UHGV virus genome: UHGV-0059448
DNA: 29,315 bases
Source of the DNA: a virus
Direction: 5' to 3' (one strand)
The first letter of the stretch is position 1; each line of letters starts with the position of its first letter. The notes below the pieces were generated by a model that made no database searches, was not told the DNA's origin, and saw only the letters and a list, made by a program, of their open reading frames with translations. Below are positions 22,407 to 29,315 of this stretch, piece after piece. Made by a program: the position numbers and the translations under genes.

Positions 22407-22517
22407 GGAATATTTCCTTTTAGGCGTGAGCCTGTCGCACAGCAAAGCCGCCGAAAGTTAACGGTTTGCCCAGGCTCACAACTGAAAGACTTTCTACGGT
22501 GTGCGCGTGCGATGCGC

Positions 22518-22545
22518 ATAAAAAAGCCCCGCATAGGCGAGGCTG
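22518..22545 (-). terminator. rho-independent terminator after the peptidase gene
   Basis: Minus-strand RNA AGCCUCGC-CUAU-GCGGGGCU followed by UUUUUUAU, about 20 nt after the stop of the 22563..23465 gene. Confidence 0.6.
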
Positions 22546-22562
22546 GAATCAGACAGGGGGGA

Positions 22563-23465
22563 TTAAGACTGGATATTCCAAATCATTGCGTTACCGTTAT
22601 GATTTTCAATGATTTTTGCCAGTGGTGCTCCACCAAAAGAATGCATGTAGCTGTGATGTATAGTCAAAACCAAATCTTGAAGTACTTGATCACTTTCAAG
22701 TTCGGTAACATTCAACCCAATTTTCTGCGCCTTATCAAAATGAATATGACGCGAGTGGGTATAGGTTGTGTGATGGTTGTTTAACTCTGAACAAACATGT
22801 GTTGCTTTTGATTCTGCCTCAGGATCATTATCAAACATGCCTGTCATAAGCCAATGCTTAACAATCTCATTTGCCCATTTGATTGCTTTCTCACACTCGC
22901 CGATGATCGTCGGGTTTAGCTTTTGAAGAATGAACTGCCACATCTGAACAGCTGCGGGATTTTGAAAAATTTCCGTCTGCGCACGATTCCATTCTTCAAT
23001 GATGGCATGGGTGGAGAAACCGTTGAACTGAGGATCAATTGGGCCAATGTTGGACTGTTTACCCATGATGATTTCATTGGCACAACATGCAAGCATAGTT
23101 CCGCAGGACATTGAAATCATAGGAACAATTGCTCTGATGTTAGTTCCAAACTTCGACCTTAAGTAATGCCCGATTGATTCCAAAGCGGCAATATCACCAC
23201 CTGGAGTATGAAGTATCAAATCCAACCCTTTTGATACATCTAAACCATTGATGGCTGTCATCAACCCGTTCTTATCATCATCAGTCATCTGAGTAAGATG
23301 GCGTACTTCTGCACCACCATGCTGTAACCACCCTGAGTAATATGTGATTACATTTCTTCCAGTATGATTCGAAAGTTGAGATAAGTATTTACGGCGAACC
23401 TCATCCATAGGACTTTTATGGGCGAGAGCCGTTATCTCGCCCAGTACGTCGCTCCAATTAGGCAT
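22563..23465 (-). CDS. ClpP-fold serine peptidase-like protein (S49 / serine dehydrogenase proteinase-like), accessory
   Basis: 300-aa ORF, ATG at 23465; motifs LILHTPGG and ISMSCGTMLA followed by IGPIDPQ resemble the oxyanion/nucleophile regions of ClpP/S49-family peptidases; lower GC than structural genes; second such protease in the window besides C. Family assignment is from motif recognition only. Confidence 0.65.
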   Translation of the reverse strand: MPNWSDVLGEITALAHKSPMDEVRRKYLSQLSNHTGRNVITYYSGWLQHGGAEVRHLTQMTDDDKNGLMTAINGLDVSKGLDLILHTPGGDIAALESIGHYLRSKFGTNIRAIVPMISMSCGTMLACCANEIIMGKQSNIGPIDPQFNGFSTHAIIEEWNRAQTEIFQNPAAVQMWQFILQKLNPTIIGECEKAIKWANEIVKHWLMTGMFDNDPEAESKATHVCSELNNHHTTYTHSRHIHFDKAQKIGLNVTELESDQVLQDLVLTIHHSYMHSFGGAPLAKIIENHNGNAMIWNIQS

Positions 23466-23468
23466 AAA

Positions 23469-23669
23469 TCAGTACGTGTAAAGTTGATGACTTGTAGTTT
23501 GGTTTTGCTTCGATTGTGTAGCGGTACCTTGTGAGTACCAAACACCTGTGTTTCCACTCGTACTAGTTTGCTGTGCCATTACACGAGAAGCGAAGTTGTT
23601 AACAGTTTCACCAGTCAACATTTCTGCCGGTTTGATATTGTAAACATCGTAGAACTCAGCTGGGGTCAT
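23469..23669 (-). CDS. small hypothetical protein (66 aa), first gene of the peptidase operon
   Basis: ATG at 23669 with AAGGAG SD 8 nt upstream; stop TGA 3 nt before the peptidase ATG (possible translational coupling); C-terminal half Gln/Thr/Ser-rich. Confidence 0.65.
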   Translation of the reverse strand: MTPAEFYDVYNIKPAEMLTGETVNNFASRVMAQQTSTSGNTGVWYSQGTATQSKQNQTTSHQLYTY

Positions 23670-23754
23670 AATGATAGCTCCTTTTATAGCGCTACATATA
23701 GTGCCTGTGCCAAGGGGGACATACTATATGTGCCATTGTTGTCATATTTAAATG

Positions 23755-23780
23755 TGCAAAAAGCCTCAAAAGAGGCTTGA
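23755..23780 (-). terminator. terminator-like hairpin downstream of the lysis cassette
   Basis: Minus-strand RNA AAGCCUC-UUUU-GAGGCUU followed by UUUGCACAUUU; lies 260 nt after the Rz stop and upstream of the small-protein/peptidase operon. Confidence 0.5.
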
Positions 23781-24039
23781 AAAAGATGCAAAAATACTAT
23801 CTATGACGTGACTATAGCTACTTACCCACAGTTTATACAAGCCAAAAATGCTAAATTCAGATAATCCTATTCGCTGAAAAACTACACAAAAGCTACGTTC
23901 ATCTTGTCATTAGATAACGTCAGTAACTTTCACTGGATCTAAGCCATTGGTGAAAAAGCTAATTGCATGATGAAGCACTGTAATGTAGCAGTTGAGGTTG
24001 TTAAATGAGAATCACCCTAACAATGTCAACGGACATTAT

Positions 24040-24576
24040 TCATTTTCGTAACTTCTCAATCTCTCGTATACCCGCCAGGTTATTGTTGCCCTTCTCAATA
24101 ACAGCCAGCAAAGGTTCAATCCAGAGGACGGCCTGGCAATACGTCATTGAGCTGGCGGCAGCGGTACTATCATCGGTTGCGTTAGTGTTCCCGGTATCGG
24201 GGTGCATTGCGCTGGCACGTAAACGGTACGCGTATTTGAGCAGCCCACCAGCGACATCAGCAGGAACAGGCAGATCACAGGTCTTTTCACGTCGGAGAAT
24301 CTCCCGGTATTCGATGACAGTTTTCTCAGTACCGGCATCGATCAGCGAGTTAAGGCGGTTGGCGTTCTCTGCTATCTGGTTAAACCGATTGAAGTTGAAA
24401 GCCTGTGTAGTTATCACCGTCGCCTGCAGCGCGTTATCATTACGTAATACCCGATTCTCACTCTGTTCTGTTTCAAGAGCTGAGCGGCTACGAACCAGTA
24501 ATACGCTAAGCACTGCAATAATGATTACGACAGCCACCAGCAGAACCGCAACAATCGTAATTTTTCTGGGTTTCAT
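24040..24576 (-). CDS. Rz: spanin, inner membrane subunit (Rz-like)
   Basis: 178-aa ORF with N-terminal transmembrane helix (ITIVAVLLVAVVIIIAVLSVLLV) and a charged helical periplasmic part; start overlaps the endolysin stop; contains an embedded lipoprotein ORF in another frame. Confidence 0.8.
   Translation of the reverse strand: MKPRKITIVAVLLVAVVIIIAVLSVLLVRSRSALETEQSENRVLRNDNALQATVITTQAFNFNRFNQIAENANRLNSLIDAGTEKTVIEYREILRREKTCDLPVPADVAGGLLKYAYRLRASAMHPDTGNTNATDDSTAAASSMTYCQAVLWIEPLLAVIEKGNNNLAGIREIEKLRK
24144..24290 (-). CDS. Rz1: spanin, outer membrane lipoprotein subunit (Rz1-like), embedded in Rz
   Basis: Frame embedded within Rz; probable GTG start at 24290 (GGGAG about 10 nt upstream) giving MKRPVICLFLLMSLVGC with lipobox LVGC; Pro-rich mature part (...PIPGTLTQPMIVPLPPAQ). 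The ORF track lists an ATG at 24338 as an alternative start. Confidence 0.7.
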   Translation of the reverse strand: MKRPVICLFLLMSLVGCSNTRTVYVPAQCTPIPGTLTQPMIVPLPPAQ

Positions 24577-25148
24577 CAGAATACCCCCGGAACTGATACC
24601 GGAATGCCAGGGTTAAGCGGCCCGAGTCCATCCCCCAGAACCTGAGGTTTCTCTGCCCACAGGCAAACTTCACGCTCAATCTCACGCCTCGTGATTAAAC
24701 CCTTCCACTGTTTGTCACCAGCATAGATCCAGCGCCGCAGTTGTTCGCATGCGCCTTTCGAATCACCCTGGTTGATTTTTCGTAACAGTGTGGAGGTTTT
24801 GAAGTTTCCCGCGCCTACGTTATACGCAAATGAGTACAGCGCCCCTCTCATCGTTTCGGGGATCGGAGCATTGATATATGGGTTAATCTGTCGGGCGACA
24901 ATATTCAGGTCTTTATCCAGCAGCGCCTGGCACTCTGCTTTGGTGTAGGTCTTGCCGAGGATAATATCTTTACCAGTATGGCCCCAGCATACAGTCCACA
25001 CTCCAACAACATCCCGATAAGGCTGATAGCGTACACCTTCAAGGCCATCATTACCCGTTGGGCCAGTAATCAACGCCGCAGCGATAGCAATAGCGCCAGC
25101 GGGTATCGCTGCAATAACGCTATTCTTCAGCTTTGGTGGCATAGCCAT
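24576..25148 (-). CDS. R: SAR endolysin (T4-type lysozyme, phage 21 R-like)
   Basis: 190-aa ORF; N-terminal signal-anchor-release segment ([18 protein letters not shown]) followed by GNDGLEGV...[14 protein letters not shown] catalytic region resembling phage 21 R as recalled. Confidence 0.9.
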
Positions 25149-25398
25149 TGCGCCGATCCTCCCGTTCTTTCCAGCGGAAATACCAGTTCACTGCACAGGT
25201 AATAACAGTGCATGCGATACCGACAATAATTGCCCAGTCGCTCAGGCTTAACCCTGCAATTCTGTCGGCCAACATCCAGGACACCTCTTTTGCTGTTTTA
25301 GCTGTTTCGGCATATGCCTTCGCTGATACACCGCAGCCGGTCAGCGTGGTTCCTGTTCCATATGAAAGTCTGCTGTAAATGGTGCTCATTCTGGTCAT
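25120..25398 (-). CDS. S: holin (phage 21 S-like pinholin) with dual-start motif
   Basis: 92-aa ORF beginning MTRM (ATGs at 25398 and 25389) with GGAGGTGAGG SD; two predicted TMDs and C-terminal KEREDRR resembling S21; 3' end overlaps the endolysin start. Confidence 0.85.
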
Positions 25399-25605
25399 AG
25401 CCTCACCTCCGATTTTTCGGATGGCGCTGTGTGTGTGTTTGAAAAGGGTCAGGCTTCACGGGCTGGATTTATCAACAAAGCACGTAGCGGATGATTCCCG
25501 TGAGCCTGAAATTGATGAATATGTCTGAAATAACTAGACCATTAGTAAAACAACTCGATAAATGTGGTTAAATGAGACTACGTTCTCACAACTTAATTAG
25601 TACCA

Positions 25606-25776
25606 ATGATTATCAAGCCCTGCCCCTACTGCGGAAAGTTAATTAACCCAGAATCACTTGTGTGTAGCCACTGCCGGATAGTGAATCCTTTTGTGAAGGC
25701 CAGCAGAAGAGAAAAAGCGAAGAATGTATTAGTAATCGCTCTCGTTGCTGCTTTTTTAATTTGGATGATTCTCTGA
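25606..25776 (+). CDS. small zinc-ribbon membrane protein (56 aa), putative
   Basis: Plus-strand ORF MIIKPCPYCGKLINPESLVCSHCRIVNPF... with two CxxC pairs and a C-terminal hydrophobic helix (VLVIALVAAFLIWMIL); below the ORF-track size cutoff; weak SD; AT-rich insert between tR'-like terminator and holin. Confidence 0.4.
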   Translation: MIIKPCPYCGKLINPESLVCSHCRIVNPFVKASRREKAKNVLVIALVAAFLIWMIL

Positions 25777-25807
25777 GTTGCCAGTTTTCAATGAAGATAA
25801 TGCGGGC

Positions 25808-25835
25808 AAAAAAAAGCCTGCTCGGACGAACAGGC
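25808..25835 (-). terminator. rho-independent terminator, candidate tR' of the late leader transcript
   Basis: Minus-strand RNA GCCUGUUC-GUCC-GAGCAGGC followed by UUUUUUUU; about 140 nt downstream of the candidate late promoter. Confidence 0.6.
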
Positions 25836-25978
25836 ATGAAAAATAACAATACCGTCAAGGAGGTGGCGCCGGGTGCCTCCCGGTGGAACAGCCCCAGCCG
25901 ACTAGTTCCGCGCAAACAAACCTGGACAAAAAAGTTTGACTGGACGCCCCGCCGCATAGGGGGATTCACCACACGAAT

Positions 25979-26008
25979 AGATTAACAACATGTTAATTTT
26001 CTGGTCAA
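25979..26008 (-). promoter_or_regulatory. candidate late promoter pR'
   Basis: Minus-strand TTGACC (26008..26003), 18-bp spacer, TAATCT (25984..25979); context ATATCTTATTGAC resembles the lambda pR' region as I recall it. Weak -10, so assignment is tentative. Confidence 0.3.
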
Positions 26009-26144
26009 TAAGATATAAGCAAATGATGACATGCAGTTTTCTTATTGCTGAGTAACTTCAATCTGGTTCAGGGCTCTGCGCGGAAGGGCTTTGACGTGTC
26101 GTGCAGCACGTCTCTACCCAAGAGCCCTGACCGGATCGCAGGCA

Positions 26145-26172
26145 TAAAAAAGCCCCGGCGGATTGCCGAGGC
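26145..26172 (-). terminator. rho-independent terminator about 90 nt after the stop of the putative Q gene
   Basis: Minus-strand RNA GCCUCGGC-AAUCC-GCCGGGGC followed by UUUUUUAU. Confidence 0.55.
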
Positions 26173-26261
26173 TAATTTTACAAACTGGTATATGACTATC
26201 ATCTTCATGCCGCCACTTAAAGTTAAGGCAGCATATCAAAGTAGACTCAAATATGACGTAT

Positions 26262-26951
26262 TTAATTGACTTTTGCAAGACCCTGCTGCGAAAAAGTCGC
26301 TTTTTGTTGTGATCGTGTTCTCACAGCACAGAGAAGAGAGTCGCTATCAAGCCGCTTAAAAATGGCGCACATAGCCCGCCAGTAATCAGCGTAGTTATGG
26401 CACCAGTTATCAGGCTTAACGCCACACAGGGCTGCAAGGTCCTGGTGCTGATATACATACTTACCCGCCAGCTCTGCTTTCACGTCCTGTGCCGCCAGCC
26501 ATATCAGTTTCTTCAGCCGCTCCATCGTCTTGCCGGCCACTTTCTTAGCGCCGAGTTGATCACGGAATTCTTCCCATGCCCACTGTGTTATCGCTACTTG
26601 ATACTCAAAGCGGATATTGTCGCTGTAGTTCCACAGCAACCAGGATTTCTGGTGGTCTTCCAGCGACAGGAGGGCGCGGCGCCAGCTGGCTGTCGAGTAT
26701 TCAACGGGCAGAACGAGAGCGATTGAGGAACCCTTAGCGCGGGACTGGCTGCCGCTCATCGGCGGTCCATCCGGGTTAACCATTTTTTGCTTCACCTCGC
26801 TATACACCTTCTTCCGGCCACGGCTGCGCGCCGTAGCGGTAAATTGCGCGTTCTCTGCAAAAGCTACCAGTTGCCCTTTCGTCGCACCACTCAGATCGGC
26901 GGTGGCCACTATCAGCTGCTGGCGAACAAATTCCAAGTATTGAGCTGTCAT
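26262..26951 (-). CDS. putative late-gene antiterminator (Q-like by position; family not verified)
   Basis: 229-aa ORF, ATG at 26951 overlapping the stop of the preceding small ORF (ATGA); last gene before the late promoter/terminator region and lysis genes; sequence does not resemble lambda Q as recalled. Confidence 0.5.
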   Translation of the reverse strand: MTAQYLEFVRQQLIVATADLSGATKGQLVAFAENAQFTATARSRGRKKVYSEVKQKMVNPDGPPMSGSQSRAKGSSIALVLPVEYSTASWRRALLSLEDHQKSWLLWNYSDNIRFEYQVAITQWAWEEFRDQLGAKKVAGKTMERLKKLIWLAAQDVKAELAGKYVYQHQDLAALCGVKPDNWCHNYADYWRAMCAIFKRLDSDSLLCAVRTRSQQKATFSQQGLAKVN

Positions 26952-27088
26952 GCTGCTTCTCCCAGGCGCTTATAGATACGGACGAAATTGCGTAATATTT
27001 TGTAGTCGACCAGCACGGTGCCGCGGCTACGCAGGAGGCGAAGCTTTTGCCAGCGGTCGCGGATGCGTTCGATAACGTCACGGCTCAT
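26948..27088 (-). CDS. small protein (46 aa), translationally coupled between rusA and the Q-like gene (ylcG-like position)
   Basis: ATG at 27088 overlaps the rusA stop (ATGA); stop TGA at 26950..26948 overlaps the start of the next gene; product [46 protein letters not shown]; below the ORF-track cutoff. Confidence 0.5.
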
Positions 27089-27447
27089 GCGGACTCCATT
27101 TCAGTAATGGTTAGCTCAAGCCGCCCACCTTTGACGACAGGCATTCTCTTCACGCTGTAGTAGTCAACCTGCTGGTCATCGAGCCAGAAACCCGATTTCG
27201 TCAGCGCGTCAAAAGCGGCCTTTTGCAGATTATCCAGGTCACGGCGACGGCGATCCGGCATGTGGCACTCAATGCGGATTTTCACAGGCATAGCCAGACC
27301 GATATCCAGCATTGCGTTTTTAATGATTCGGGCGACGTTATCGCGGTATGCCTGCCCTTCTGCGCTGATGTGCGTGCGCCCGCGATTATGGCGGTAGTAG
27401 CGGTTATTGCTCGGCGGCCAGGGCAATGTGATGTTGTAAGTATTCAC
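27085..27447 (-). CDS. rusA: Holliday junction resolvase RusA
   Basis: GTG start at 27447 overlapping the ybcO-like stop (GTGA) gives a 120-aa product [37 protein letters not shown]... matching E. coli RusA as recalled; the ORF-track start at 27510 would add 21 non-conserved residues. Confidence 0.9.
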
Positions 27448-27734
27448 GCCTTGATTACCCCCTCTTTCAGCCAGATAACCTGCGTTCTCGCCATACCTTC
27501 CAGCGCGCATTCTTTAGCATACTCAGCATCGACAAAATGTGTACGGCGGTCGATCTCGTCGTGACAGGCAGAGCATGCAATGGTGGCAATAAGGTCTGGC
27601 GGTTTAATACCGGTGCCGCACAATCCAGCCAGCCGGATATGTGCCAGTACAGACGTTTCAGGATTGCCATTACATACGCCAGGGATTCTTACCTGGCATT
27701 CCCGACCACGCGCTGCTTTTCTCAAATCAGCCAT
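27444..27734 (-). CDS. ybcO: YbcO-like Cys-rich protein (DUF1364 family, putative nuclease)
   Basis: 96-aa [38 protein letters not shown]... closely matching DLP12 YbcO as recalled; ATG at 27734 overlaps the ninE 3' end. Confidence 0.8.
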
Positions 27735-27897
27735 GTGACCTCCGCGCTTTCAGGCGATCCCATTTCACCTGGGTCAGTCGCGCGGTGTAGCCGAGCAGTG
27801 ATGGGATTTCGGATGGCTTGAGTTCAGGCTTGCGCTTAGTGCGTGTCCGGACCCGGTAGATTTCGTTGGTGATGATGCGAGCGAGAGGGCTAGCCAT
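27727..27897 (-). CDS. ninE: NinE-like protein (56 aa)
   Basis: ATG at 27897 overlapping the ninB stop (TAATG); product [56 protein letters not shown]; below the ORF-track cutoff; position between ninB and ybcO as in DLP12-type nin regions. Confidence 0.75.
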   Translation of the reverse strand: MASPLARIITNEIYRVRTRTKRKPELKPSEIPSLLGYTARLTQVKWDRLKARRSHG

Positions 27898-28334
27898 TAC
27901 GCAACCCTCCCGAAGTAATCACCTGAGTAGCGAACTTCACGGAGTTGCACGCCGTTTTGCACAGCAAATGCCTGGCTGTATTCGATGAGACTGGTCATGC
28001 GACGGATGCCCATCTTCGCAGTGCTTTCCCGGATGGCGCAGAACTCCCCTTCCAGACCCGGCACCACTTCACCAGGCTTACCGGTGGCAATGGCATGGCC
28101 TGAGACATACAGGACTTTCCATGAAGCGAGGTCGCGCGACTTGCCAGCCCATTGCAATTGCTTCGCTGTATCGCCACAGAGAGCGTGGAAGAGGTCGTTT
28201 TGGGCGAGAGTGCGGTCAGCCTCAGAAAACTTCACCACGAGCGGCAGAGCGTCGTTAACAGGCAGCTTCCTGATGTAGTCGATGAGGTTATCGCGAACGC
28301 GTTCGTCGCGGAGGTAGAAAACAGGCTGTTTCAT
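27897..28334 (-). CDS. ninB: recombination protein NinB
   Basis: ATG at 28334 (MKQPVFYLRDERV...) with GGAGGTG SD, preferred over the upstream start at 28382; 146-aa product with ...LAQN...ASWK...VVPGLEGEF... resembling lambda NinB. Confidence 0.85.
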   Translation of the reverse strand: MKQPVFYLRDERVRDNLIDYIRKLPVNDALPLVVKFSEADRTLAQNDLFHALCGDTAKQLQWAGKSRDLASWKVLYVSGHAIATGKPGEVVPGLEGEFCAIRESTAKMGIRRMTSLIEYSQAFAVQNGVQLREVRYSGDYFGRVA

Positions 28335-28421
28335 ACGCCACCTCCGAGAGGTAACGCAGAATACAGAAAATCGCAGGTACATTTCTGCATCTGTGACAAG
28401 GTGAGAAGTTCATATTGTGGT

Positions 28422-28445
28422 CGCATTTAAGTCCCCTTAAATGCG
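28422..28445. repeat. perfect 10-bp inverted repeat CGCATTTAAG-TCCC-CTTAAATGCG upstream of ninB
   Basis: Read directly from the sequence; lies between the stop of the 166-aa gene (28523) and the ninB start (28334); no adjacent U-tract on either strand, so not a classical intrinsic terminator. Confidence 0.8.
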
Positions 28446-28522
28446 CAGAAGTCACCGGAGTTGTTCAGGCTCCGATGACATGATTATGGCTGGTTGATTT
28501 TGGAAAATCAATTGCGCTGAGT

Positions 28523-29023
28523 TTAATCAGCAAGATCCTCATCTGTTACAACCATGAAGTTAAAGAATGAAATAGCATTTATCCATTGCGCGTAAATATC
28601 GCTGCTCATGCTGTTGGGCTCCTCTCCCCGGAAGAAAGCATCCGGTCCGACTTGATAGTTGAGCTCTTCAAAGAGCTCCATATTCAATTGGCTTAAGAAG
28701 AATTGTTTTAGCTCTCTTATATCAAGCTTGTCATCATTTTCGGTATGATCTTTTATGCTCTCCATTGCCAGGTTAAGGCATCGAACTATATTGGCAGCGT
28801 CATAGAAATCCCACTCTGCACCTCTTTTGCCCTTTGAGAAAGAATTAGCTTTTTCGGCAGTGGATTTTAGAAGCTCATACAGGCTCATTCTGCTTTGGAT
28901 TTTTAGTGCTTTTGCTGCCGTCTGCCTGCTTGCAATAGCAGCCCAGGCAGAGGCGATGGCCGCGGCGACTGAAAAACCGGAAATGATTACCTCTGAATGT
29001 TGCTTTATATATTCGAATATCAT
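28523..29023 (-). CDS. membrane-anchored hypothetical protein (166 aa), accessory
   Basis: ATG at 29023; N-terminal hydrophobic helix (VIISGFSVAAAIASAWAAIAS) then a charged soluble domain; AT-rich; sits between the replication-side gene and ninB, flanked by hairpin elements. Confidence 0.6.
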   Translation of the reverse strand: MIFEYIKQHSEVIISGFSVAAAIASAWAAIASRQTAAKALKIQSRMSLYELLKSTAEKANSFSKGKRGAEWDFYDAANIVRCLNLAMESIKDHTENDDKLDIRELKQFFLSQLNMELFEELNYQVGPDAFFRGEEPNSMSSDIYAQWINAISFFNFMVVTDEDLAD

Positions 29024-29038
29024 ATCTGTGCACTCAGA

Positions 29039-29077
29039 AGCTGAGCCACGTTTTTGTGGCGGAGCTCAGCTTTTTTT
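29039..29077 (+). terminator. terminator-like hairpin with T7 tract (plus-strand sense)
   Basis: GCTGAGC ... GCTCAGC stem (7 bp, with an inner CAC/GTG stem and bulge) followed by TTTTTTT at 29071..29077; on the minus strand it sits in the 5' leader of the 166-aa gene. Confidence 0.4.
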
Positions 29078-29135
29078 GACTAACAATGAAAATAAAAATA
29101 CTAGATTTAAATTATCTCGTCGAATGGGTTCTGCA

Positions 29136-29315
29136 TCACTTCACCTTCCACTGCGGTGCTGCTGCAATCATCGCGCGGTATGCAGCCTGCATGTCGTTGT
29201 CATCATCGTCTGTGTACGGAGCCGAATCCCATGCTGCACGCATATCCGGAGTAAGCTCAACCGGCACCATCACCCAACCATCTGGAATCACCGTTGCATT
29301 TCCACCCTGAACAGT
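29136..29315 (-). CDS. hypothetical phage protein, 3' end only (5' part beyond window end)
   Basis: Minus-strand frame open from the window edge to TGA at 29138..29136; C-terminal 59 aa ...LTPDMRAAWDSAPYTDDDDNDMQAAYRAMIAAAPQWKVK; not in the ORF track because its start lies outside the window. Confidence 0.5.
   Translation of the reverse strand, partial: TVQGGNATVIPDGWVMVPVELTPDMRAAWDSAPYTDDDDNDMQAAYRAMIAAAPQWKVK

Follow-up and report, generated by a model that had tools for sequence, protein, structure and literature searches.

What kind of gene has been placed between the replication-side accessory genes and ninB of a lambdoid prophage, and what might it do there? We addressed this question in the virus genome UHGV-0059448, using a stretch of 29,315 nt (hereafter, the window) whose right end forms the early-right/late junction of such a prophage. 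The gene in question is an open reading frame (ORF) of 166 amino acids (aa) on the minus strand at 28523-29023 (stop codon included, ATG at 29023), and its product belongs to the protein family phrog_1779. An earlier interpretation drawn from the nucleotide letters (the sequence-only reading) had described it as a membrane-anchored accessory gene of the variable exclusion type. Our analysis suggests that it is a selectively maintained, moron-like cassette encoding a membrane-anchored, acidic, partner-binding protein for which phage-phage conflict would be the likeliest role; we give this reading as a whole a probability of about 40%.

The 166-aa ORF is a real protein-coding gene under strong purifying selection. 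Among six independently sampled cassettes of the window's clade, originating from E. coli, Enterobacter, Citrobacter and metagenomes, the ratio of nonsynonymous to synonymous substitution rates (dN/dS) ranged from 0.04 to 0.19, with saturated synonymous sites (dS > 1). The protein matched the PHROG family phrog_1779, which is listed as being of unknown function, with E=2.7e-53 and 181 bits, and the match was full-length (residues 8-166 against profile positions 8-169 of 169). No match was found in Pfam (at E <= 1 or at E <= 10), NCBIfam, PADLOC or the PDB sequences. The sequence-only reading had presented the gene as a single AT-rich gene whose product is recognizable neither as a nin protein nor as a replication protein, and had called for homology searches and structure prediction as a check. 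Both descriptions held: the G+C content (GC) of the coding sequence is 0.43 vs 0.52-0.59 for its flanks, and the searches returned phrog_1779 alone, together with an all-helical orphan fold predicted by AlphaFold2 (AF2) and no identity to a known replication or nin-region protein.

Relatives of the protein are found across Enterobacteriaceae, and the family is patchily distributed. A word-indexed search covering 5.8 billion clusters recovered 23 relatives, and an exhaustive profile search covering 1.84 billion representatives recovered 37; nearly all of the latter are 150-180 aa long, and size and architecture are constant across phrog_1779 homologues. The exact window protein is recorded on 160 Enterobacteriaceae contigs, and for one protein of the sister clade the number of contigs is at least 1000. 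The window-type cassette is present in two of 5426 complete E. coli genomes and the main sister type in 26, and a profile built from the closer alignment detected a close relative in four of 185,579 species-representative genomes. E. coli NCTC9040 and PEC422 are examples of lysogens with the identical cassette. In UniRef, the sister-clade protein P0089 from E. coli bears the label 'DUF4760 domain-containing protein'. This label was not reproduced with the Pfam copy that we used, which may or may not still include that model and which gave no DUF4760 match at E <= 10 for either the window protein or P0089, and none of the 31 family representatives matched DUF4760 at E <= 0.1. Our literature search found no functional study on phrog_1779, on its two WP accessions or on DUF4760; for lambdoid hotspots and for ninB and morons it yielded general papers, of which Vassallo et al. 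2022 was uninformative.

Comparison with phage phi80 (JX871397, our locus L001), which lacks the gene, delimits the inserted segment. Using blastn, the two flanks of the cassette were matched to phi80 sequences separated by only 36 bp: 28331-28498 corresponds to L001 2474-2643 (86% identity) and 29118-29315 to L001 2680-2877 (97%). The cassette therefore spans 28499-29117, i.e., 619 bp with a GC of about 0.40-0.47 in place of 36 bp. At this point, phi80 has the 5' boundary of the cassette, AACCCATTCGACGC, fused to ACTAAACGTCAAGCAAC, in which the final codon and the stop of an L026-type copy of the 166-aa gene can be recognized together with its 3' flank. This site (L001 2644-2690, between PHI80_52 and PHI80_53) looks like the deletion scar of a member of the same gene family. 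These boundaries differ from those of the sequence-only reading, which had treated 28335-29080 as one unit and had seen a perfect 10-bp inverted repeat as the downstream flank of the gene. The repeat exists (28422-28445), but it is the IR4 element of phi80; it lies in the leader of ninB, beyond the cassette boundary at 28499, and we rejected it as a cassette flank. The proposed unit merged the cassette with the ninB leader.

The slot itself is variable, as had been proposed by analogy with lambda, which carries ren there: its contents differ between phi80, E. coli KL53 and PhiR26_1. The KL53 prophage (NZ_CP030919) is 97% identical to the window over 22508-28511, the match stops at 28511, and its slot holds a different hypothetical gene of 145 aa on the opposite strand (L031 10161-10598). 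This gene gave no Pfam or PADLOC match, and its presence at this position favours an interpretation of the slot as a hotspot of gene exchange. In PhiR26_1, the slot between P and ybcN contains ren, PD-lambda-1 and rha in addition to a relative of the 166-aa gene. Since ren and this relative occur together, the two genes are not alternatives to each other.

Closer relatives of the gene always lie directly upstream of the ybcN/ninB leader, and more distant ones occupy other sites. One is located 3' of a Dam methylase gene and 5' of rusA/Q; others, in Cronobacter prophages, lie at the end of the pL operon between ea-type genes and xis/int; a further one, situated after O/P, is a copy fused to extra membrane segments. 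The distant homologue P0033 (L014) belongs to a small element with Ogr/Delta, a theta-like gene, an AlpA-type helix-turn-helix gene and an integrase. This element adjoins a reverse transcriptase and SLATT_5 pair of the defence type with a membrane effector (L014 2031-3931, 6001-6519). Overall, homologues were found at accessory sites of the pR or pL early operons or on a small integrative element. In every context examined, the gene has the same orientation as its flanking genes, which are those of the early operon wherever it resides in a prophage.

A moron is an inserted extra gene with its own signals. In the window, the cassette is inserted between sequences that are adjacent in a relative and its base composition deviates from that of its surroundings. 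A candidate promoter, described below, is a weak match that is conserved at exact spacing, and the only terminator candidate is a weak 6-bp hairpin (28515-28532), the next terminator-like element lying within the ninB leader. In three distant homologues (L014, L017 and L022), strong terminators are located directly 3' of the gene. Judged from these comparisons, the locus is a single-gene, moron-like accessory cassette in an exchangeable slot that extends from the replication-side accessory genes to the ninB leader.

We then considered how the gene might be expressed. No strong promoter was found on the gene strand before the 166-aa gene. The segment upstream holds a candidate weak sigma70 promoter at 29095-29123 (minus strand), composed of the -35-like hexamer TCGACG (29123-29118), a 17-nt spacer and the -10-like hexamer TATTTT (29100-29095), from which transcription would start near 29088. 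All six diverged cassettes of the window's clade present TCGACG-N17-TATTTT with a spacing of exactly 17 nt, and the mean pairwise identity among them reaches 0.94 in the -35 hexamer and 1.00 in the -10 hexamer, relative to 0.58 for the spacer and 0.42 for the downstream segment, in cassettes whose synonymous sites are saturated. Across viral contigs, the TCGACG/TATTTT 5' module was found only before members of the 166-aa gene family (6/6). This suggests that the element is probably a weak promoter belonging to the gene. Since this promoter would be the gene's own, expression in a lysogen would be possible.

Between this element and the start codon lies a hairpin (arms 29038-29046 and 29064-29072, with an inner 4-bp stem) adjoined by a run of seven T residues at 29071-29077 on the plus strand. 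The sequence-only reading had noted an upstream hairpin with a T7 tract, and both features exist. However, the T-run follows the hairpin on the plus strand, so that the structure has the shape of an intrinsic terminator only in the direction antisense to the gene. The gene strand reads A7-hairpin-UUCUGAGUG, i.e., a stem-loop in the 5' leader that ends 14 nt before the ATG. The plus-strand version has a folding energy of -25.5 kcal/mol (z=-2.35), compared with z=-1.54 for the gene strand. A Shine-Dalgarno-like GAGTG is found at 29031-29035 (minus strand), 7 nt 5' of the ATG, and the block TGAG(T/C)(G/A)C around it is kept across the window's clade. A stable hairpin that ends 12-25 nt 5' of the start codon was present in all 11 cassettes that were compared, which cover both clades and differ in hairpin sequence, indicating that the leader hairpin is a conserved trait of the family. 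Indeed, the stem of L028 shows a compensatory change from GCTGAGC/GCTCAGC to GCTGAAC/GTTCAGC. Only the window and copies of the L012 type have the plus-strand T-run.

The 5' end of the gene is organized differently in the sister clade. There, a perfect TATAAT abuts a hairpin of the form CCCCTC-loop-GAGGGG, usually followed by a T-run and then by the ATG, and the GAGGGG of the 3' arm is positioned as a Shine-Dalgarno sequence. This arrangement suggests a promoter embedded in a terminator such that only locally initiated mRNAs would be translatable: with a start site about 7 nt past TATAAT, a local transcript would be without the 5' arm, so that neither termination nor occlusion of the ribosome-binding site (RBS) would affect it, as they would read-through transcripts. 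The same arrangement, TGTATAAT-CCCCTC-N6-10-GAGGGG-(T-run)-ATG, recurs as a portable module with 22 instances in viral contigs (e.g., L035, L050, L060 and L093). It is located at L003 5694-5740 (minus strand) and is also found 5' of the family gene in L005, L006, L007 and L008. At least four unrelated small genes of lambdoid contigs are preceded by the module, encoding theta/HolE-like proteins (~84 aa), a 60-aa protein, a 150-164-aa protein and the 166-aa family.

The plus-strand terminator shape raises the alternative that the gene encodes a membrane-active, toxin-like or exclusion protein restrained by a cis-antisense RNA of ~280 nt, running from 28765-28792 to 29038-29077. Such an RNA would cover the RBS and codons 1-75, and it would be an analogue of P22 sieB/sas or of a type I toxin-antitoxin system. 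Its promoter-like site, TTGCCA-16-TATATT at 28765-28792 within the coding sequence, agrees with the consensus at 10 of 12 positions, and its position weight matrix (PWM) score of 12.75 makes it the best sigma70-like match of the window on either strand. The site faces the canonical hairpin and T7 on the same strand, ~280 nt away, and no plus-strand ORF of at least 30 aa is contained wholly in the interval, so that a non-coding antisense RNA is possible. Precedents exist: in P22, translation of sieB is under the control of the antisense RNA sas, and STnc6030, an antisense RNA of a prophage, acts as a mediator of exclusion (PMC7067206). However, the strong -10 is present only in the window and in L002; L012 has TATGTT, and either AATATT or AACATT is found in the other four cassettes. 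Because the site coincides with the protein motif that is most conserved (codons AANIV..LAM), coding constraint confounds its partial conservation. Moreover, the canonical plus-strand T-run is restricted to the window and L012-type copies, the sister clade lacks the antisense terminator, and synonymous conservation shows no excess in the region that would be covered (0.52 for codons 1-77 vs 0.60 for codons 78-166). Finally, a product of 166 aa is far above the typical size of type I toxins. We rejected a conserved sas-like or type I antisense control on the grounds that its signals, present in the window, are kept neither across the six cassettes nor in the sister clade, and we consider an antisense-restrained toxin or exclusion gene quite unlikely.

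The predicted protein has a single hydrophobic segment at its N-terminus, residues 12-30 (VIISGFSVAAAIASAWAAI), with a Kyte-Doolittle mean of 2.01 over 19 residues. One lysine or arginine (K/R) precedes this segment and four are found within the next 15 residues. This hydrophobic helix and its positive-inside charge bias lead to the prediction of a bitopic inner-membrane protein of N-out/C-in topology, with ~11 residues outside. These predictions agree with the transmembrane helix and the charged cytoplasmic domain of the sequence-only reading. The features are shared by most of the family: 25 of the 31 representatives reach a Kyte-Doolittle value of at least 1.6, and K/R residues ahead of the helix are absent in 26. 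The membrane helix is rich in alanine and serine and only marginally hydrophobic, and the 14 positions with the highest conservation in the family include A26, A29 and S32. These small residues might form a helix-packing face, in which case the helix would be more than a passive anchor. One family member (P0050, 288 aa, encoded at L020 6001-6867) is fused to an extra N-terminal region with ~3 added hydrophobic segments, which supports a membrane localization of the family.

The hydrophobic N-terminus could also be read as a cleavable Sec signal peptide (h-region VIISGFSVAAAI, with a possible A-S-A site at residues 23-25) that would place the helical domain in the periplasm. An AXA-like motif indeed follows the hydrophobic stretch, and for several exclusion proteins the site of action is known to lie beyond the cytoplasmic membrane. 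The N-region, however, carries no net positive charge, and such K/R residues before the helix are missing from the same 26 of 31 relatives; 2-6 K/R are instead found within 15 residues after the helix. In addition, AF2 predicts one unbroken helix from residue 2 to residue 63 that packs into the domain, and the putative cleavage site is surrounded by residues that rank with the best conserved in the family. We therefore regard a signal peptide as very unlikely.

The AF2 model (predicted local distance difference test, pLDDT, 86) is all-helical in the remainder of the protein as well. The predicted cytoplasmic part is acidic, with an isoelectric point (pI) of 4.67 and a net charge of -8, and it ends in the tail TDEDLAD; ~20 of the 31 representatives, distant ones included, end in (T/S)D-x-DL-x-D. 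No relatives of this domain were found by fold or by sequence, and it can be described as an orphan fold. At no position is a D, E, H, K, R or C conserved throughout the family, the near-invariant residues being only A, S, Q, L, N, W, I, F and P. This lack of conserved catalytic-type residues makes binding to a partner, or scaffolding, at the inner face of the membrane likelier than catalysis. Two other assignments were considered. An Rz-like spanin was rejected, as the charge bias is reversed and a holin and a lysozyme, consistent with a lysis cassette, are encoded elsewhere in the window (24576-25398). A membrane organizer of DNA replication resembling phi29 p16.7 was also discarded, the acidic domain (pI 4.7) arguing against DNA binding.

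Several known systems offer points of comparison. SNIPE/PD-lambda-1 is an N-out, single-pass membrane defence nuclease with cytoplasmic domains that acts at the site of DNA entry (bioRxiv 10.1101/2025.11.03.685801). In PhiR26_1, it occupies the same ren-to-ybcN/ninB slot, two genes away from the relative of the 166-aa gene, and its short periplasmic N-terminus, single membrane helix and cytoplasmic body correspond to the architecture predicted for the 166-aa protein. In contrast to SNIPE, the 166-aa protein is acidic, lacks a nuclease motif and matches no PADLOC model, and the SNIPE gene lies on the opposite strand in PhiR26_1. SieB of P22 and lambda is a membrane-associated prophage accessory protein. 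The antisense promoter-like site of the window is reminiscent of sieB/sas, but antisense signals are not conserved in the 166-aa family, SieB has another genome position, and neither Pfam nor hhalign (probability 0.2%) showed any similarity between the two. Another small exclusion protein is gp15 of HK97. It is likewise the product of a single inserted gene, annotated as 'moron product', with its own terminator and located between genes that are adjacent in relatives; unlike the 166-aa protein, it has 62 aa and is encoded in the late (tail) operon, and the two were compared by size and architecture only. Finally, lambda ren has the equivalent position between P and ninB, but its product is 96 aa long, is not known to have a membrane helix and is unrelated (hhalign probability 0.07%).

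Taken together, these observations lead us to a tentative mode of action. The gene would be expressed from the N-antiterminated early transcript of pR, because it is co-oriented with the operon and no gene-strand terminator precedes it, and it would probably be expressed additionally from its own weak promoter TCGACG-17-TATTTT, which would allow expression in the lysogen. The protein would bind a partner at the inner face of the membrane. Its role, which we guess from the genomic context, might lie in conflict between phages at the membrane, where incoming phages would be countered by exclusion or abortive infection. A function in exclusion or counter-defence is plausible because SNIPE/PD-lambda-1 occupies the same slot in PhiR26_1. 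The claim of a variable exclusion-type gene accordingly stands in part: position and anatomy agree with it, and exclusion as such had been deduced from location. With no similarity to SieB, RexB, Ren or the PADLOC models, the protein cannot be filed under a known exclusion family.

Several observations weigh against a role in phage-phage conflict or against the signals and topology on which it depends. Neither homology nor experiment ties the 166-aa protein to any function. In PADLOC-DB v2, no match at E <= 10 was found for the window protein and four of its relatives gave only noise (E >= 0.008); hhalign probabilities were 0.2% against lambda SieB, 0.05% against RexB and 0.07% against Ren. 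The candidate promoter agrees with the consensus at only 8 of 12 positions and has a PWM score of 7.7, a value that ~160 sites on the same strand of the window reach, and its -35 block is present in phi80, which does not carry the gene. No clear gene-strand terminator is found 3' of the gene in the window. On the protein side, the Hessa-scale sum for the helix is ~+1 kcal/mol (a simple sum of scale values), and the confidence of the AF2 model is lowest at residues 1-20. Finally, the direction of the gene is invariably that of the early operon, as would be equally expected of an early lytic gene.

This last point introduces another explanation, namely that the gene product is an accessory protein of early lytic growth that plays no part in the lysogen. 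Expressed from N-antiterminated pR or pL transcripts only, it would target a host membrane component or a membrane-associated defence, in the sense of host takeover or counter-defence. The gene is co-oriented with the early operon in all contexts, including the pL site between ea-type genes and xis/int, and a strong gene-strand promoter was not found. The domain is acidic, with its net charge of -8, and several anti-restriction proteins are acidic too. The nin region of phi80 carries a Lar-family restriction-alleviation gene, and one distant homologue adjoins the defence system formed by the reverse transcriptase and the SLATT_5 membrane effector. Conversely, a purely lytic gene would not readily explain that the -35/-10 pair is kept at exactly 17 nt amid diverged surroundings, that gaps of 112 nt upstream and 185 nt downstream separate the gene from its neighbours, unlike the overlapping nin genes, that strong terminators stand directly 3' of the gene in distant homologues, or that the sister clade has a perfect TATAAT directly upstream. 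Because the gene is always co-oriented with early operons and is also present among the accessory genes of pL, we consider a role in early lytic growth or counter-defence to be almost as probable as one in phage-phage conflict; this explanation strikes us as possible though on the unlikely side.

A more specific proposal for the whole family combines several of these elements. Under this proposal, phrog_1779 would be a hitherto unrecognized non-enzymatic, single-protein, membrane-anchored conflict factor of lambdoid phages that acts either by exclusion or abortive infection or as an inhibitor of membrane-bound host defences. The acidic domain and the D-x-DL-x-D tail would dock onto a partner at the DNA-entry or membrane site, and the leader hairpins would insulate expression from lytic read-through, through a promoter-in-terminator whose 3' arm is the RBS in the sister clade and perhaps with an added antisense RNA in the window copy. 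We hold this more detailed model to be rather doubtful.

The genes around the cassette all lie on the minus strand. In the direction of transcription, the 3' end of a gp52/gp45-like gene is followed by the 166-aa ORF, ninB, ninE, ybcO, rusA, Q (26262-26951) and the holin and lysozyme genes, such that the 166-aa gene is co-oriented with ninB-ninE-ybcO-rusA-Q. The gene had been placed between a replication-side gene and ninB. The downstream neighbour is ninB indeed (27897-28337, minus strand; Pfam NinB E=5.6e-39). The upstream neighbour, whose C-terminal end occupies 29136 to 29315 (minus strand) and which continues beyond the window edge, is not demonstrably a replication gene; it resembles phi80 gp52 and N15 gp45. 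The intergenic gaps around the 166-aa gene measure 112 nt upstream and 185 nt downstream, in contrast to the nin genes, which overlap. An Rfam scan of 27800-29315 returned nothing relevant.

Outside the cassette, the 28331-28512 segment (minus strand) forms a leader of ninB/ybcN with matches in over 2000 complete E. coli genomes; it folds far better than shuffled controls (z=-4.4). It contains a promoter-like TTGATT-17-CATAAT at 28511-28483 (minus strand), the window's best minus-strand match, within a palindrome at 28494-28511. This is followed by a hairpin with the conserved loop CCUGAACAA (28451-28479, minus strand), whose stem varies in at least six ways, with covariation, among 13 loci. 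Next comes the IR4 hairpin, a perfect 10-bp inverted repeat (28422-28431 and 28436-28445) that is annotated as IR4 in phi80, has by our own estimate a chance expectation of ~0.05 per 900 bp, and holds the start codon of a 31-aa ORF. This orf33/ylcH-like ORF (28331-28426, minus strand) contains a highly conserved terminator-like element at 28372-28389, and its stop codon overlaps the ATG of ninB (ATGA). The record of phage 82 marks features of this leader as putative only. Its organization looks like that of a regulatory leader acting by attenuation or translational coupling.

The cassette is plausibly a reasonable candidate for defence or counter-defence screening. Should its product prove to act in defence or counter-defence, the accessory slot between the replication genes and the nin region would gain a small mechanism that is membrane-anchored and enzyme-free, and the cassette would provide a function for a family that is labelled only as 'hypothetical' in the prophages of Enterobacteriaceae. 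If no phenotype is associated with it, the gene would be one more well-conserved orphan phage gene. In addition, the ninB/ybcN leader and the portable promoter/terminator/RBS module bear on the control of lambdoid accessory genes and of the nin operon.

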